This document shows, in pieces, positions 56,793-63,711 of a stretch of DNA of 64,000 bases. Origin of the DNA: Lachnospiraceae bacterium (GTDB taxonomy: Bacteria > Bacillota > Clostridia > Lachnospirales > Lachnospiraceae); the NCBI GenBank assembly GCA_024681595.1, contig JAILAN010000101.1, positions 1,976 through 65,975 on the forward strand. Direction: 5' to 3'. The position numbers were made by a program, and so were the translations under genes. Below the pieces are notes generated by a model. That model saw nothing but the letters and a program-made list of their open reading frames with translations. It was not told the DNA's origin and made no database searches. Positions within the stretch are counted from its first letter, which is position 1. Each line of letters starts with the position of its first letter.

Positions 56793-57013
56793 AGGTTTGT
56801 TCTCCGTTTCTTTATGAATCTGTGTCGGCTGATGCTGACGATAACTATGCTAACATATTATCCTGAATTTTTAAAGGTCAAAGTACAGGTTCTTTATGAT
56901 AATAAATCCACTTGTTCTTGAAGAATCATCTCTAAAATACTAAAATATATTTATCTGACCATGGTCGCGGGAGATCAGGTCATTTTGATTATTTAAGAAT
57001 TTCGGAGACTAAG

Positions 57014-57598: not shown

Positions 57599-58280
57599 TG
57601 AGCCCAGAATGAGAAAACTGGTCAGCGACTTTCTGGTCAATAATGATTTTTCCGTAATCGAAGCATCAAATGGCCGTGAAGCACTAAACAGATTCTATGA
57701 GGAAGCCGATATATCATTAGTCATTCTTGATGTAATGATGCCGGAGATAGACGGCTATGAGGTTCTGCGAAGGATTAGAGAGAACTCTAAAGTTCCGGTC
57801 ATAATGCTGACTGCAAAGTCGGATGAAAAGGATGAGCTGCTAAGCTTTTCACTGGGAGTTGATGAGTTTGTTTCCAAACCGTTCAGCCCTAAAGTTCTTG
57901 TGGCAAGGGTTAACGCCATTTTGAGGCGAACAACTGCCGACGGCTCTGCACAGAGGATAGAATCGGGCGGCATCGTTATTGATAAACTTTCCCACCGCGT
58001 TCTTATCGATGATAAAGAAATCGAACTCAGCTATAAGGAATTCGAGCTTCTTTCTTTTTTTATGGAGAATAAAGGCGTTGCCCTGTCCAGGGACAAGATT
58101 CTGAACTCTGTATGGAATTATGATTATTTTGGTGATGCCAGAACAATAGATACACATGTCAAAAAACTCCGTGCGAAACTCGGAGAGCACGGCAATAACA
58201 TAAAAACAATTTGGGGAATCGGGTACAAGTTTGAAGTGACGGAAAAGGAGAGAGAGTATGAGTCTGGTCAAAACAAATGA
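57576..58280 (+). CDS. OmpR-family response regulator (REC + winged helix), no adjacent histidine kinase
   Basis: '[12 protein letters not shown]...[13 protein letters not shown]' and '[15 protein letters not shown]...[12 protein letters not shown]'. TTG start with AGGAG 7 nt upstream. Confidence 0.9.
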
Positions 58281-60192
58281 GAACTGTATCGGATGTAACA
58301 AATGCATCAAGGCCTGCAGCTGTATCGGCGCCAATATTGCCGCCGAAAAAGATGGGAGAAATACTATTCAGGTTGATCCGAAAAAGTGTATTGCATGCGG
58401 TGCCTGTATAGATGCATGTGAACACGGCGCCAGAGAGTATTTGGATGATGTTGATGTTTTCTTTGAAGACCTCAGACGCGGAGAAAAGATCTCCGTCCTT
58501 ATAGCGCCTGCATTTTTGGCAAATTATCCCAATGAATATGAAAAATATCTTGGAATGCTAAAGAAACTTGGCGTAAACAGGTTTATCAGTGTGTCTTTTG
58601 GAGCGGATATAACTACCTGGGGATATATCAAATACATAACTGAACGCAATTATTACGGCAGTATTTCACAGCCTTGTCCGGCTGTTGTCGGGTATATAGA
58701 GCGTTATCTTCCTGAAATGCTCCCGAAGTTAATGCCTGTTCAAAGCCCGATGATGTGTGGAGCCATATATGTTAAAAAGTATCTTAAAGTGTCTGACAAA
58801 CTAGCGTTTATAAGTCCCTGCATTGCCAAGAAAAATGAAATAGATGATCCCAACAACGGGGGGATTGTTTCTTATAATCTGACATTTTCTAAGCTGGTTG
58901 CTTATCTAAAGGAGCATCCTGTTAACGGTGCCGTACCCTATAAAGATGAGATCGAATACGGCCTGGGTTCGATATATCCGATGCCTGGCGGACTTAAAGA
59001 AAACGTGTACTGGCTTCTTGGAGAAGATGCACTTGTCCGCCAGATGGAAGGCGAGCACCATATGTACGAGTATTTAAGACGTAATAAGGATCGCATCTGC
59101 AATTCCAGAAATCCATATCTTTTTGTTGATGCTTTAAACTGCACTAATGGTTGTCTTTACGGTACCGGAGTCGATAACAGAAAGACTTTAAACGAAGATG
59201 TATTTATAAATATCCAGAAGATCCGTTCTAGCAGCAAGAACAATTCCAAAAAATCGGCATGGGGCAGAGATCTTACACCAAAGCAGAGGCTTGATGTTCT
59301 GAACAAGCAGTTTGCTGATCTTGATCTGAATGATTTTGTTCGTAAATATACTGACAGAAGCAAGGAGTGTGCATATAAAACTCCGAGTGAAACTCAGCTT
59401 AATTCGATCTTTGCAGAACTCAATAAGGATACCGAAGAAAAAAGACACATAGACTGCGGGTGCTGCGGATATGCTACATGCAGGGATATGGCTACTGCTA
59501 TATATAACGGATTCAATCATAAGGATAACTGCGTTCATTATATCAAGGATCTTGCCTTTGAAGAAAAAGAGAAGGCATTGAAGCTTAACGAGGAAGTAAA
59601 AAAGGCTCACGAAGAGATGAATGCCAAGAAGGAATCTCTTGGAGCCGGAATAAATGACAATTTTGATAATCTGCTTGAATCTATATCAGCCATAGAAAAG
59701 GCCAGTGAAGATAATGTTCATCAGACAGCCGGCATATCCGATTCAATGAATGATGTTGATGATTTTGCCAGAAATCTTAAAGAAGTATTGTCAAGCATCG
59801 AAGGTTATCTTGAAAAACTTGAGGCTAATAATGCCGATGTTATCGCCATATCGAGTCAGACAAATCTTCTTGCCCTGAACGCTTCGATAGAGGCAGCCAG
59901 AGCAGGAGAGGCCGGAAGAGGATTTGCGGTCGTGGCCGATGAGATCAAAAAACTGGCTGAAAATTCCAAGACTACAGCAGATGACAGTAATAAGAACAAT
60001 AACGACATTAAGGAAACTATCAATAAGCTGATCGAAGAATCCGGACGTTTGACAGAGATCGTTGACAGCGTTAATCTTCGAGCTCAGAGTCTGGTAGCTT
60101 CATCGGAAGAGACATCCGCTTCGATCAATATGATGCAAAACCTTACAAGGAACGTTGAGGAATCTCTTAAGCAGGTTCTTGACTCTGAATAA
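58258..60192 (+). CDS. [FeFe]-hydrogenase-like sensory domain (2x[4Fe-4S] + H-domain-like + extra Cys motif) fused to an MCP signalling domain, cytoplasmic
   Basis: '[11 protein letters not shown]' and '[11 protein letters not shown]'. H-cluster-type motifs: 'SQPCP' (vs TSCCP), 'SPCIAKKNE' (vs MPCxxKxxE), '[11 protein letters not shown]' (vs CxxGCxxGG). Extra Cys motif 'CGCCGYATC...C'. MCP hairpin '[37 protein letters not shown]'. No TM segment. Confidence 0.85.
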
Positions 60193-60247
60193 ATACATAA
60201 TACTTATCTGACAACGAAGCTACGTGCTGAGTGGAAAGGAGTTTGTA

Positions 60248-61213
60248 ATGAAAAAAATAGTTTACGGGATCATAGTTATGATCCTGGCATCTGTCGTGCT
60301 CGCTGGATGCGGAAAAAAAACAGAGGTTGAAGATGACACCCGGATCCGTGTGGGATCGCTTAAAGGTCCTACGTCAATCGGTATTATCAAAATGATACAC
60401 GAACAGGATCAGGGAGATTACAGTTTTACCATTGAGACGCAGGCTGATGTGCTGCTGTCTTCGATTGTGGCAGGTGATCTGGATATTGCACTGATCCCTG
60501 CAAATGTTGCTTCTGTGCTATATAACAAGACCTCCGGCGGAATCTCAGTCATAGATATCAATACTATGGGTGTTCTGTATATGGTCAGCGGAGATAAGGG
60601 TATTACCGATATGGCTGATCTGGAGGGACACACGGTTTATACTACCGGAGCTGGTTCCACACCGGAGTACGTCCTTCGATATCTGCTTAATGAGTATGGA
60701 CTAGGTGATAAGGTGAATATCGAGTTTAAATCCGAAGCAACTGAGGTTGCAGCATTGCTGTCTCAGGATCCTGAAGCGGTCGGAATGCTGCCTCAGCCTT
60801 TTGTAACGGCTGCTCTTAAGCAGAATGAAGCATTGTCGGTTGTCCTTGATATGACCAAGGAATGGGATGATCTTAACAATGATTCTTCACTAATTACCGG
60901 TGTTACGGTTGTCAGGAACGATTTTCTTAAACAACATCCGGCTGCCGTATCCAGATTCCTTGAAGATCATTCTGATTCGGTTTCTTTTGTTCACAGCGAT
61001 ACCAAGACAGCTGCCGGGTATGTTGTTGAAGCGGGTATCATTGAAAAGGAACCGGTTGCTGTAAGTGCAATTCCTAACTGCAATATAGTCTGCATTTCGG
61101 ATTCGGAAATGAAATCATTACTCTCGGGATACCTGAAGGTTCTTTATGATCAGGATCCTGCATCTGTGGGAGGCGATCTTCCCTCGGATGATTTTTACGC
61201 TGATATTAAATGA
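60248..61213 (+). CDS. ABC transporter substrate-binding lipoprotein (NMT1/SsuA/TauA-like)
   Basis: Lipobox 'SVVLAGCG'. 'IRVGSLKGPTSIG' and 'LDIALIPANVA' fit the NMT1-type periplasmic-binding fold. AAGGAG RBS before the ATG at 60248. Confidence 0.7.
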   Translation: MKKIVYGIIVMILASVVLAGCGKKTEVEDDTRIRVGSLKGPTSIGIIKMIHEQDQGDYSFTIETQADVLLSSIVAGDLDIALIPANVASVLYNKTSGGISVIDINTMGVLYMVSGDKGITDMADLEGHTVYTTGAGSTPEYVLRYLLNEYGLGDKVNIEFKSEATEVAALLSQDPEAVGMLPQPFVTAALKQNEALSVVLDMTKEWDDLNNDSSLITGVTVVRNDFLKQHPAAVSRFLEDHSDSVSFVHSDTKTAAGYVVEAGIIEKEPVAVSAIPNCNIVCISDSEMKSLLSGYLKVLYDQDPASVGGDLPSDDFYADIK

Positions 61214-62595
61214 ATAAAAAGCTAAATAAAGCGGTAATTCTGCTCGCTTGGTTATTCCTGTGGCAGATTACCGCATTTTTTGTTAACAACCCCATATACT
61301 TTGCTTCTCCGTTAGAAGTCCTTTTGGAGATTGTTTCCAAAGCTGCAGATCGTGGGTTCTGGCTTTCAATATGCGGATCGCTTTTAAGGATAACAACCGG
61401 ATTTATTATTTCAGGATCGCTGGCTTTTATAATGGCATTTGTATGCTTCAGATTTAAGTGTCTCAGAGATTTTCTGTCGCCTGCAGTTACTTTTTTTAAA
61501 TCAGTCCCGATAGCGGCTGTGGTTGTTGTGCTGCTGATTTGGTGGGGACCACGTTACCTTGTCCTTTGTATCAGCATGATGGTCGTTTTTCCGAATGTTT
61601 ACCATAATATGCTGACCGGGATATCTAATGCTGACAGATCTTTGATCGAGATGTCGGATGTTTTTAAAACCAGATGGATTGACAGGTTTTTATGGATATA
61701 TCGTCCGTCTTACCTTCCTTATCTGCATTCAGCGGTTTCGGTATCTTTGGGTATGTGTTTTAAATCCGGTATTGCTGCTGAAGTGATAGGATTGCCGGAA
61801 TTCAGCATCGGGGAACGACTGTACAGAGATAAGATATATCTAAATACTGCAGGTGTATTTGCGTGGATAGTAGTTGTTCTGATACTAAGTTCGGTAACTG
61901 AACGACTGATCGGAGTTTTACTTAAAAGACTGTCGAATGTGCCTTCATGTATAGATCTGACTGAAAGAGAAAATCACGGGAGAAAGTACGAAGCCGAAAA
62001 CAGAAAAATGACATCTTATTCTGTCATTGCAGACAGAATCATCAAAAAATATGATGATCGTGTAGTTATAGATACTGATCTTAAACTTATTCCAGGTCAG
62101 ATATACAGCATAAAAGCACCATCCGGTTCGGGAAAAACAACTCTTCTTAAAATCCTGTCCGGAATTTTGAAACCTGATAGCGGAACCGTACAGACCGGAT
62201 CGATCAGCATGGTTTTTCAGGATGACAGACTGATCCCAAATGCAAACGGATTGCGGAATCTGCGATATGCACTTTGCAGCGGGAACCTCAGGAAAGAATA
62301 TCTTAAACTTCTTCCGGCCGATACATTAGGGCTCCCTGCTTCATCCTTAAGCGGAGGCGAGAGAAGAAGACTTTGTATATTAAGGGCTATGCTAAGGCAT
62401 TCACAGATCGTGATCATGGATGAGCCTTTTGCAGGGCTTGATGAAGCAACTAAACAATATACTGCTGACTGGATATTGAAAAATCTTAACGGCAGAACGC
62501 TCATATATACCGCTCATGATCCGGATCCGGTCATTTGGCCCGGATCTGAGGAGATAAAGCTGATCGATAAGAAACGGCCTGCGAAGGGAGAATGA
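61210..62595 (+). CDS. Fused ABC permease + ATPase
   Basis: The N-terminal ~250 aa are a multi-TM permease. The C-terminal ~200 aa carry Walker A 'APSGSGKTT', signature 'LSGGERRR', Walker B 'IVIMDEPF' and H-loop 'TAHD'. ATGA overlap with the upstream gene. Confidence 0.8.
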   Translation: MNKKLNKAVILLAWLFLWQITAFFVNNPIYFASPLEVLLEIVSKAADRGFWLSICGSLLRITTGFIISGSLAFIMAFVCFRFKCLRDFLSPAVTFFKSVPIAAVVVVLLIWWGPRYLVLCISMMVVFPNVYHNMLTGISNADRSLIEMSDVFKTRWIDRFLWIYRPSYLPYLHSAVSVSLGMCFKSGIAAEVIGLPEFSIGERLYRDKIYLNTAGVFAWIVVVLILSSVTERLIGVLLKRLSNVPSCIDLTERENHGRKYEAENRKMTSYSVIADRIIKKYDDRVVIDTDLKLIPGQIYSIKAPSGSGKTTLLKILSGILKPDSGTVQTGSISMVFQDDRLIPNANGLRNLRYALCSGNLRKEYLKLLPADTLGLPASSLSGGERRRLCILRAMLRHSQIVIMDEPFAGLDEATKQYTADWILKNLNGRTLIYTAHDPDPVIWPGSEEIKLIDKKRPAKGE

Positions 62596-62849
62596 TTATG
62601 GATATGAGGATCGCACTTATAGGAGTGATAGTCACGGATAATTCAGTAAGCGGCGAACTGAATACATTGCTGTCCGGATACGGAGAATATATAATAGGCA
62701 GAATGGGCATACCTCATCATAGATTTAAAGAAGACGAGGTGGCTATAATAAGCATTGCCATCGAGGCTCCGCAAAGCACAATAAGTGCGCTTTCCGGAAA
62801 ACTGGGGATGATCAAAGGCGTATCGGCAAAAGTTCTTTATGCCGGATAG
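62592..62849 (+). CDS. TM1266-family small ACT-like protein (putative iron-only hydrogenase system regulator)
   Basis: About 85 aa. 'RIALIGVIV', 'IIGRMGIP' and 'ISALSGKLGMIKGVSAKV' match my recollection of the TM1266 family. The ATG at 62598 has better RBS spacing (GGGAG, 7 nt). Confidence 0.65.
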   Translation: MIMDMRIALIGVIVTDNSVSGELNTLLSGYGEYIIGRMGIPHHRFKEDEVAIISIAIEAPQSTISALSGKLGMIKGVSAKVLYAG

Positions 62850-62850
62850 A

Positions 62851-63711
62851 TCAGTCTTTTTTCTCGTACAGATTTCGGAATTCCGTAGGAGTACATCCTT
62901 TAATGATCTTGAACATTCTCATAAATGCCGACAAAGAGTTAAATCCCGATCTGGACGCAACTTCCATGACATTCATATTGGGGTCCATAAGCAGCTTTTC
63001 GGCATAATCTATCCTGCGCCCGTTCAGATATTTATAAAATGTTACGTTAGCAAACTCCTTGAACAGACGACTGAAATGAAACCTGGAAAAACCGGCCAGC
63101 TCAGCTACCGAATCAAGGGAGAGATCTTCGGTGCAGTGAACGTTGATATACTCACATACTTTCATGAATTTATCAATATACTCTACCTGCTTGGTAGGCT
63201 TTATATCAGCAAATCGGTCCGGCTGCTGAGTATAACTTCGTCCTGCCATTACCAGTATCTGTAATAATTTCGAATAGATAGAGGCATCCTTTAAAGGAAA
63301 ATTTGAAAAATATTCATCCCTGATCTCGACCATGAGCCTTGACGCATCCTCATGTATGAGTGGAAAATCTTCGGGAGTGATCTTAAGGGCACTTTCTATG
63401 GAAAAGAAGGATTCAAAATCGCTGAAAGAATTAAGCAGAGTTAGTCCGCATTGCAAAATGATCCTGCGCCCACTCTCGGCGTTCATGCGGTGGAGTACGC
63501 CAGGCCCGATTATCAGTATATCATTTACTCTCAATTCATATTTTTTTTCAGAACAGTAGATCGTATAATTGCCTTCAGTCGGCATCAATATTTCTATAGG
63601 AGTATGCCAGTGGATGGGATATTCCTCGTAATCTATATTGTCATAACACAACAGAAGTGTATTGTCTTCAAAACTTACGGTTTCTTTAGTTCCTTCGAGA
63701 TTTTTGATCAT
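62851..63711 (-). CDS. AraC-family transcriptional regulator (N-terminal cupin-like + C-terminal HTH)
   Basis: 'LSLDSVAELAGFSRFHFSRLFKEF' and 'VMEVASRSGFNSLSAFMRMFKIIKGCTPTEFR'. N-terminal 'YPIHWHTPIEILMP' is cupin-like. Confidence 0.9.
   Translation of the reverse strand: MIKNLEGTKETVSFEDNTLLLCYDNIDYEEYPIHWHTPIEILMPTEGNYTIYCSEKKYELRVNDILIIGPGVLHRMNAESGRRIILQCGLTLLNSFSDFESFFSIESALKITPEDFPLIHEDASRLMVEIRDEYFSNFPLKDASIYSKLLQILVMAGRSYTQQPDRFADIKPTKQVEYIDKFMKVCEYINVHCTEDLSLDSVAELAGFSRFHFSRLFKEFANVTFYKYLNGRRIDYAEKLLMDPNMNVMEVASRSGFNSLSAFMRMFKIIKGCTPTEFRNLYEKKD

Follow-up and report, generated by a model that had tools for sequence, protein, structure and literature searches.

An ABC importer that accompanies [FeFe]-hydrogenases, mostly in place of HydE/HydF/HydG: a candidate route of cofactor supply

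How does a bacterium that carries [FeFe]-hydrogenases obtain their cofactor, if the maturases that otherwise make it—HydE, HydF and HydG—are not found in its genome? The question is raised by a 64-kb stretch of DNA from a Lachnospiraceae bacterium (contig JAILAN010000101.1; the whole of this stretch is called ‘the window’ below), in which the gene for a hydrogenase-like methyl-accepting chemotaxis protein (MCP) is followed by a short leader RNA element and by three genes, encoding a lipoprotein substrate-binding protein (SBP), a permease fused to an ATPase, and a small protein of the TM1266 family. More generally, the maturation route in maturase-less carriers of such hydrogenases (most of the archaeal ones, Giardia, Entamoeba) is a recognised unsolved problem (Greening et al., PMC11216029). 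We propose, with a confidence that stands at about the half-way mark, that the leader RNA, SBP, fused permease-ATPase and TM1266 protein together form a dedicated [FeFe]-hydrogenase accessory, standing in for HydE/HydF/HydG by importing a building block of the cofactor. A narrower version, in which the importer serves in nature to salvage the ready-made di-iron cofactor or its Fe(CO)2(CN) synthon, is put forward more tentatively, as falling somewhat short of an even chance. New in this work are a count of how the module and HydF/HydG complement each other across genomes, the finding that in two phyla it occurs strictly together with hydrogenases, the cultured isolates, and the location of the leader element in the window. 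The features concerned are as follows:

58258–60192, plus strand: [FeFe]-hydrogenase-like MCP, group C2 type (Fe_hyd_lg_C, FeS and MCPsignal domains)
60204–60241, plus strand: leader RNA element, a short variant of the TM1266-associated hairpin, CUGACAACGAAGCUACGUGCUGAGUGGAAAGGAG (covariance model R1)
60248–61213, plus strand: SBP, an NMT1/SsuA-fold lipoprotein (Pfam and NCBIfam matches, lipobox)
61210–62595, plus strand: fused permease-ATPase, 461 amino acids (aa; BPD_transp_1 and ABC_tran; start overlaps the SBP stop in ATGA)
62592–62849 (likely true start 62598), plus strand: TM1266-family small ACT-like protein, 85 aa (TIGR03959, PF21699)

The genome to which the window belongs (G000; a 2.48-Mb assembly in 196 contigs, 93.7% complete) carries four Fe_hyd_lg_C genes: that of the hydrogenase-like MCP and three further ones (C133:49216-49923, C48:1727-2413 and C124:45491-45907). 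Two of these three keep the complete set of H-cluster motifs (TSCCPxW, PCxxKxxE and MACxxGCxxG) and the MCP keeps the cysteines of PCP, PCxxKxxE and CxxGC; because the MCP would need an H-cluster, it is a likely client of the importer module under the reading proposed above. Searches of this 93.7% complete assembly with both hidden Markov models and tblastn found neither HydE, HydG nor HydF, and tblastn found no nitrogenase-like or HydE-like substitute. None of the three module proteins matches the families of HydE and HydG (radical S-adenosylmethionine, ‘radical-SAM’, enzymes) or of HydF (a GTPase).

The distribution of the module was followed in a sample of 201 Lachnospiraceae genomes, one per genus, using as its marker the SBP—the best-conserved part of the module, with orthologues that are 40–61% identical and present in one copy per genome. 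Fe_hyd_lg_C was found in 186 of the 201, HydF in 110, HydG in 94 and TM1266 in 103; the SBP, always single-copy, in 74, and a homologue of the permease in 75. All 74 SBP-positive genomes carry a hydrogenase gene, and the importer is missing from all 15 genomes that have no such gene. The 186 hydrogenase-bearing genomes divide into 97 with a maturase marker only, 59 with the importer only, 15 with both and 15 with neither; importer and HydF/HydG are thus anti-correlated (odds ratio 0.04), with a naive p of 3e-20 that ignores kinship between genomes, and hence overstates the signal. Hydrogenase carriers that are without maturase markers (74 of the 186 genera) are therefore common among gut and rumen bacteria, and most of them have the single-copy importer.

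The same pattern extends beyond the family. At the level of the class, a sample of 220 Clostridia genomes from 69 families includes 45, from more than 20 families, that carry the SBP; 25 of these 45 are without HydF, the odds ratio for SBP versus HydF being 0.30 when taken over all 220 genomes irrespective of hydrogenase presence. Ten SBP-positive, HydF-negative genomes, hand-picked from nine other families, were tested for HydA, and all ten carry it (300–354 bits); HydG was not found in any of the five of these that were searched for it, and in two of those five the TM1266 gene abuts that of the SBP. In the Coriobacteriaceae, which belong to a different phylum (30 genomes, 22 with a hydrogenase gene and 8 without), the SBP is present in 21 of the 22 hydrogenase-bearing genomes and in none of the 8 others, HydF is present in just 2 genomes, leaving 20 of the 22 hydrogenase carriers without it, and in 16 of the 21 SBP-positive genomes the SBP gene directly adjoins a hydrogenase gene. 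Four of five cultured isolates with the SBP (Collinsella acetigenes, Pilosibacter fragilis, Alitiscatomonas aceti and Lachnospiraceae AB2028) are negative for both HydG and HydF. A literature search on maturase-less gut bacteria turned up nothing specific.

Physical linkage points in the same direction. Within 10 kb of the SBP gene there is a hydrogenase gene in 23 of 80 loci from named assemblies, for the most part directly adjacent; these hydrogenases are group A-like, group B-like or sensory, and nearly all have full H-cluster motifs. In Collinsella tanakaei, for example, a divergent hydrogenase gene adjoins those for the SBP and fused permease-ATPase. Occurrence in hydrogenase-bearing genomes only, adjacency to hydrogenase genes and the HydF/HydG anti-correlation together lend strong support to a suggestion made in the initial annotation of this locus, that the transporter supplies or senses a small molecule tied to [FeFe]-hydrogenase function or maturation. 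Its narrower claim, of a link to a sensory hydrogenase, holds for the window and for four related loci with the same MCP–SBP synteny (L014, L040, L041 and L063; L- and G-numbers denote the loci and genomes compared), but is lineage-specific, the general link being to [FeFe]-hydrogenases of any group. A relative of one further SBP carrier, Olsenella uli, is of interest here: in pure culture, Olsenella umbonata was found to produce no H2 although it expressed a hydrogenase of group B (Welsh et al., 10.1101/2024.08.15.608110), behaviour that would be consistent with cofactor auxotrophy. In Olsenella uli itself (L120:5184-10047) the gene for the SBP orthologue has no permease gene beside it and comes directly after pyruvate:ferredoxin oxidoreductase.

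The third gene of the module ties it to maturation from another side. The 85-aa open reading frame (ORF) scores 93.8 bits against TIGR03959 (cut-off 60.8) and 92.2 bits against PF21699 (cut-off 27), and the crystal structure of TM1266 (PDB: 2NZC) matches residues 3–81 with an E of 5.6e-9; family invariants N24, R37, G39, P41, S68-G69-K70 and K80 are all present, as are the motifs GRxGxP and LSGKxG, and the same residues are invariant in TM1266 proteins from importer and from maturase contexts alike. G000 carries one TM1266 gene only. The linkage with hydE/hydF/hydG from which the family takes its name is absent here, G000 being without all three, which leaves membership by sequence unaffected. 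Amongst the Lachnospiraceae, the TM1266 gene and the importer are no more than 2 kb apart in 24 of the 74 SBP-positive genera—18 of which have neither HydG nor HydF, with two more (G008, G054) being HydF-positive and HydG-negative—and the association recurs in other Clostridia families. In the remaining TM1266-positive genomes the gene mostly adjoins that for HydG or HydF; overall, 101 of the 103 TM1266-positive genomes have maturases or the importer, and in one (G186) all lie in a single run, in the order importer, TM1266, HydE, HydG, HydF. Both of the outcomes that the initial annotation had named as telling against its proposal, an ORF outside the TM1266 family and a linkage that does not recur in other genomes, are thus contrary to what we found. 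TM1266 is an optional accessory, the gene being absent from 36 of the 74 importer-bearing Lachnospiraceae genomes. Our literature search on TM1266 returned annotation mentions only. A role as a NikR-like metal sensor was considered and rejected, as the family alignment is without any conserved Cys or His.

A separate set of TM1266 loci deserves mention. Nineteen genomes are HydF-positive and HydG-negative, 16 of them with TM1266, and we annotated the locus in two (L038:3557-8543 of G035 and L039:224-8324 of G166). In each, TM1266 heads a cluster with a NifH-like ATPase (323 bits on nifH, under the cut-off), two NifD/E/BchB-like proteins and HydF; L039 additionally encodes a permease of the BtuC/FecCD type, along with an ATPase to which a second TM1266 domain is fused. 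Judged by their gene content, the clusters look like a third route tied to H-cluster supply.

What might TM1266 act upon? A covariance model, R1, was built from 13 leaders of the compared loci (consensus GUUCGURCURAC, a stem, then CUGNGGGAGAAGGCGA); a search of related loci totalling 1.57 Mb gave 25 hits, every one of them in the leader immediately preceding a TM1266 or SBP gene. Its top hit in the window, searched on both strands with filters off, is at 60204–60241, a weak match (15.6 bits, E 0.036) located in the MCP–SBP spacer and overlapping the Shine-Dalgarno sequence of the SBP gene; it keeps the inner CUGAC...CUGAG-GGAAAG, and is without the outer UUCG/CGAA helix. The 35-nucleotide (nt) block at this site is near-identical in L040, L041, L042, L044 and L063, despite a differing upstream gene and unconserved 5′ sequence, and is absent from L014, which also has no TM1266 gene; conservation in five relatives, coupled with loss alongside TM1266 in the sixth, supports a function for the putative element in the window. 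We consider that TM1266 probably acts on the conserved leader RNA, not on DNA. A second copy of the leader near 56,960–57,000 (ATCTGACC...GGGAGA), similar by eye, was dropped, as R1 did not report the stretch.

The spacer that holds the leader separates the MCP from the SBP gene by 55 nt, and agrees with its initial description as a gap with no terminator: a consensus scan of it showed neither promoter-like nor terminator-like sites, and no promoter was seen by eye either. The three genes downstream were likewise confirmed as ORFs in the sequence. Of the two ATGA overlaps originally described, at the SBP/permease-ATPase and permease-ATPase/TM1266 junctions, both are there to be read, but the second may not be a real start. 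The spacing from the GGGAGA ribosome site better suits the ATG at 62598, which lies 6 nt downstream of it, and starting there gives an 83-aa protein (MDMRIAL...) in line with the ‘ME.R’ start of TM1266 relatives; because of this alignment and spacing, we favour a TM1266 gene that may begin at 62598, 2 nt past the transporter stop, instead of overlapping it.

The binding protein has the attributes of an SsuA/TauA/NMT1-like lipoprotein, as first annotated. Its lipobox reads LAGC, and its match to NMT1 (PF09084) scores 32 bits, over a cut-off of 20.5; at 64.1 bits its score on SsuA_fam (TIGR01728) lies under the cut-off of 163.5, and so it is not filed as SsuA. Further weak matches are to OpuAC and Phosphonate-bd. 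An AlphaFold2 model (mean predicted local distance difference test, pLDDT, 90.7) places it nearest to PDB 3HN0 (profile E 1.3e-26, template-modelling score 0.74–0.84), followed by SsuA, TauA, the pyrroloquinoline quinone (PQQ)-binding PqqT, a thiamin-binding protein and ThiY; with the last three among the matches, the fold is one that includes receptors for cofactor salvage. 3HN0 itself (BDI_1369 from Parabacteroides distasonis, a structural genomics target) resembles the SBP over the whole domain, including a C-terminal vGGxLPxxxF motif and a conserved Cys, but is just 23% identical and has no assigned ligand. Invariant residues of the SBP include GPT (40–42) and Cys278. The latter, found in the motif AIPxCN, is the sole invariant Cys besides that of the lipobox in 13 orthologues and aligns with the Cys of 3HN0; unusual in an extracytoplasmic binding protein, it could be a contact for metal or ligand.

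The fused protein comprises a BPD_transp_1 permease (approximately residues 1–255; PF00528, 45 bits) and a short ABC (ATP-binding cassette) ATPase of ~195 aa (approximately residues 265–461; PF00005, 77.8 bits), bearing out the permease–ATPase fusion noted in the first reading of the locus. The ATPase motifs are intact in translation: Walker A (APSGSGKTT), Q-loop (FQDD), signature (LSGGERRR), Walker B (IVIMDEPF) and the H-loop His. With an NMT1/SsuA-fold SBP, a BPD_transp_1 permease and these motifs, the module qualifies as a type I ABC importer of the NitT/TauT type; atypical for that type is the presence, in the window, of permease and ATPase on a single polypeptide. The fused family is a large one (5549 matches, mostly in metagenome-assembled genomes of Lachnospiraceae), and orthologous loci carry the two parts either fused or split. 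Two gene orders were seen: SBP, fused permease-ATPase, then TM1266 where present, often upstream of tig-clpP-clpX-lon; or TM1266, SBP, permease, ATPase.

The simplest reading is that the importer supplies what HydE, HydF and HydG otherwise make, since it occurs only with hydrogenases and mostly instead of maturases, lies next to hydrogenase genes, and has TM1266 and the leader in common with hydEFG operons. From this we infer that module and maturases act in the same process. The extracellular lipoprotein would capture a component of the hydrogenase cofactor that nearby microbes have made—most parsimoniously a di-iron [2Fe] carbonyl/cyanide complex in finished form, or an iron-carbonyl-cyanide precursor close to it—and the type I ABC importer would carry it into the cytoplasm. 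There, the apo-hydrogenases of the maturase-less host—two catalytic-type enzymes and the hydrogenase-like chemoreceptor—would take it up. TM1266 is envisaged to bind the leader RNA overlapping the SBP ribosome site, and to shut the operon down once supply suffices, in a feedback loop whose direction, like the binding of RNA, is our proposal. We know of no natural transporter for [2Fe]-type complexes. The chemistry of the last step has a laboratory counterpart: synthetic [2Fe]adt given to living Escherichia coli or Synechocystis activates apo-hydrogenase in the absence of HydEFG (PMC6984386). As apo-hydrogenase accepts [2Fe]adt spontaneously in living cells, no further enzymes would be needed once a pre-formed di-iron complex had been imported, and such an enzyme-free route fits G000, which has none of the candidate enzymes. 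The likeness is that an external di-iron complex enters living cells and activates the enzyme; the difference is that artificial maturation is a laboratory procedure using high doses of cofactor.

Several observations weigh against this proposal. Kinship among the genomes inflates the naive p-values; 15 Lachnospiraceae and 20 class-level genomes have both maturases and importer, and 15 hydrogenase-bearing Lachnospiraceae have neither; the class-level association, unconditioned on hydrogenase presence, is weaker; the leader match in the window is weak (15.6 bits); 3HN0, the nearest solved relative of the SBP, comes without an assigned ligand; and the case as a whole is built from genes and sequence comparison. 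To our knowledge, no one has yet demonstrated that [2Fe]-type complexes, which are labile, exist as a natural pool outside cells. To these we add a finding from G017, a genome that has neither HydF nor HydG: a HydE-like radical-SAM gene (L031:9688-10710; 170 bits on TIGR03956, cut-off 254.6) directly follows its TM1266-SBP-permease-ATPase operon, and hints at a cargo that is a precursor in need of processing.

This finding also speaks for an alternative, to us a rather unlikely one: that the cargo is a simple precursor—an iron chelate, a sulfur compound, or a donor of cyanide or CO such as cyanate or thiocyanate—feeding a HydEFG-independent biosynthesis encoded elsewhere, with TM1266 regulating its supply. 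NitT/TauT-family SBPs typically bind small anions, and the SBP fold matches SsuA and TauA; besides the G017 gene, the TM1266 clusters that join HydF, nitrogenase-like proteins and a FecCD-type importer show that processing enzymes exist in some lineages; and an alternative biosynthetic pathway in archaea has been argued for by Greening et al. (PMC11216029). Set against this, none of the candidate enzymes is present in G000, across 100 loci the importer has no enzyme gene as a consistent partner, and an importer of a simple nutrient should turn up in some hydrogenase-less genomes, whereas this one is present in none of them (0/23).

In a different view, to our minds improbable, the cargo belongs to hydrogenase physiology and not to cofactor assembly, as a substrate or a signal (for instance an electron donor or acceptor, or a metabolite sensed along with H2), and the maturase anti-correlation is a by-product of shared ancestry. 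The importer does follow a chemoreceptor in the window and is surrounded by signalling proteins in L015, some 28 loci place it beside tig-clpP-clpX-lon with no hydrogenase nearby, and kin genomes are not independent; the pattern nevertheless recurs in two phyla and at least 10 families, TM1266 and the leader RNA otherwise adjoin genes for H-cluster maturation, and the hydrogenases of maturase-less carriers keep all H-cluster ligands, and so still need a source of cofactor. We strongly disfavour, as very improbable indeed, an ordinary importer of sulfonate, taurine, nitrate or a thiamine precursor that sits beside hydrogenases by chance, along with a TM1266 homologue that is a mis-named general ACT protein. 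The weak Pfam and NCBIfam matches to NMT1, SsuA_fam, OpuAC and Phosphonate-bd are what speaks for it; yet the SsuA_fam score is far under threshold (64 bits against 163.5), the SBPs form a discrete single-copy orthologue group whose distribution tracks hydrogenases and not sulfur or thiamine genes, and hydrogenase adjacency in 16 of 21 Coriobacteriaceae genomes is not a matter of chance.

Compared with systems already described, the module that we propose as a maturase substitute can be set beside HydE/HydF/HydG (TIGR03956, TIGR03918 and TIGR03955): clients, TM1266 and leader RNA are the same, and the two sets of genes are contiguous in G186. There is, however, no homology between them, radical-SAM and GTPase enzymes being set against a transporter that mostly occurs in their stead. 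In make-up it belongs to the same branch of the ABC superfamily as SsuABC and TauABC, the NitT/TauT-family importers of aliphatic sulfonates and taurine: an SBP of the NMT1 type is combined with a BPD_transp_1 permease and with a short ATPase whose signature is LSGG(E/Q); unlike them, its SBP falls below the TIGR01728 cut-off and its phyletic pattern follows [FeFe]-hydrogenases instead of sulfur metabolism. In its proposed logic it recalls the systems of ThiXYZ/ThiY (3IX1), the thiamin-binding SBP (4NMY) and PqqT (9B1V), in which a finished cofactor or late precursor is imported, not made; their binding proteins share the SBP fold (Foldseek E 1e-12 to 1e-13) but are just 12–16% identical to it, and the module differs in having a fused permease-ATPase. 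Salvage of the ThiXYZ type employs a riboswitch, whereas for the module we suggest control by a protein and RNA pair, and a cargo that would be an organometallic iron complex. As for that pair, PyrR (pyr leader) and TRAP (trp leader) are similar to TM1266 in being small, operon-encoded proteins associated with a conserved leader over a terminator or ribosome site; TM1266 has instead an ACT-like fold and a capacity for RNA binding that is our proposal, and the element in the window lies on a Shine-Dalgarno sequence, with no terminator.

If correct, the cofactor-import reading would make hydrogenase-cofactor auxotrophs of roughly one Lachnospiraceae genus in three, of the majority of Coriobacteriaceae and of many Clostridia besides, with both H2 metabolism and H2 sensing dependent on cofactor released by maturase-bearing neighbours, and TM1266 with its leader RNA would be a feedback switch common to the ‘make’ and ‘take up’ routes. 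Were the cargo indeed the cofactor, H2 production in gut and rumen would be partly community-dependent, with a bearing on methane mitigation and on the biology of breath tests; the importer would become a tool for the cheap in-vivo activation of recombinant hydrogenases; and TM1266, whose structure was solved 20 years ago, would acquire a function. The importer is, in short, a candidate for the long-sought maturase-independent route of cofactor supply, and an open question of cofactor biology becomes one for the bench, given cultured strains, a soluble SBP and a ligand that can be synthesised commercially.

Two further observations concern the surroundings of the module. The ~28 of 80 loci in which the importer, with or without TM1266, is immediately upstream of tig-clpP-clpX-lon are L045–L048, L050–L052, L054–L056, L064, L066, L071, L074–L077, L081, L086, L091, L099, L104, L107, L109, L112 and L117–L119. 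In the window, the module is bounded downstream by a convergent AraC-type gene (62851–63711, minus strand), for which no link to the importer module was seen in relatives; its stop and that of TM1266 are separated by a single nucleotide (window 62847–62853).

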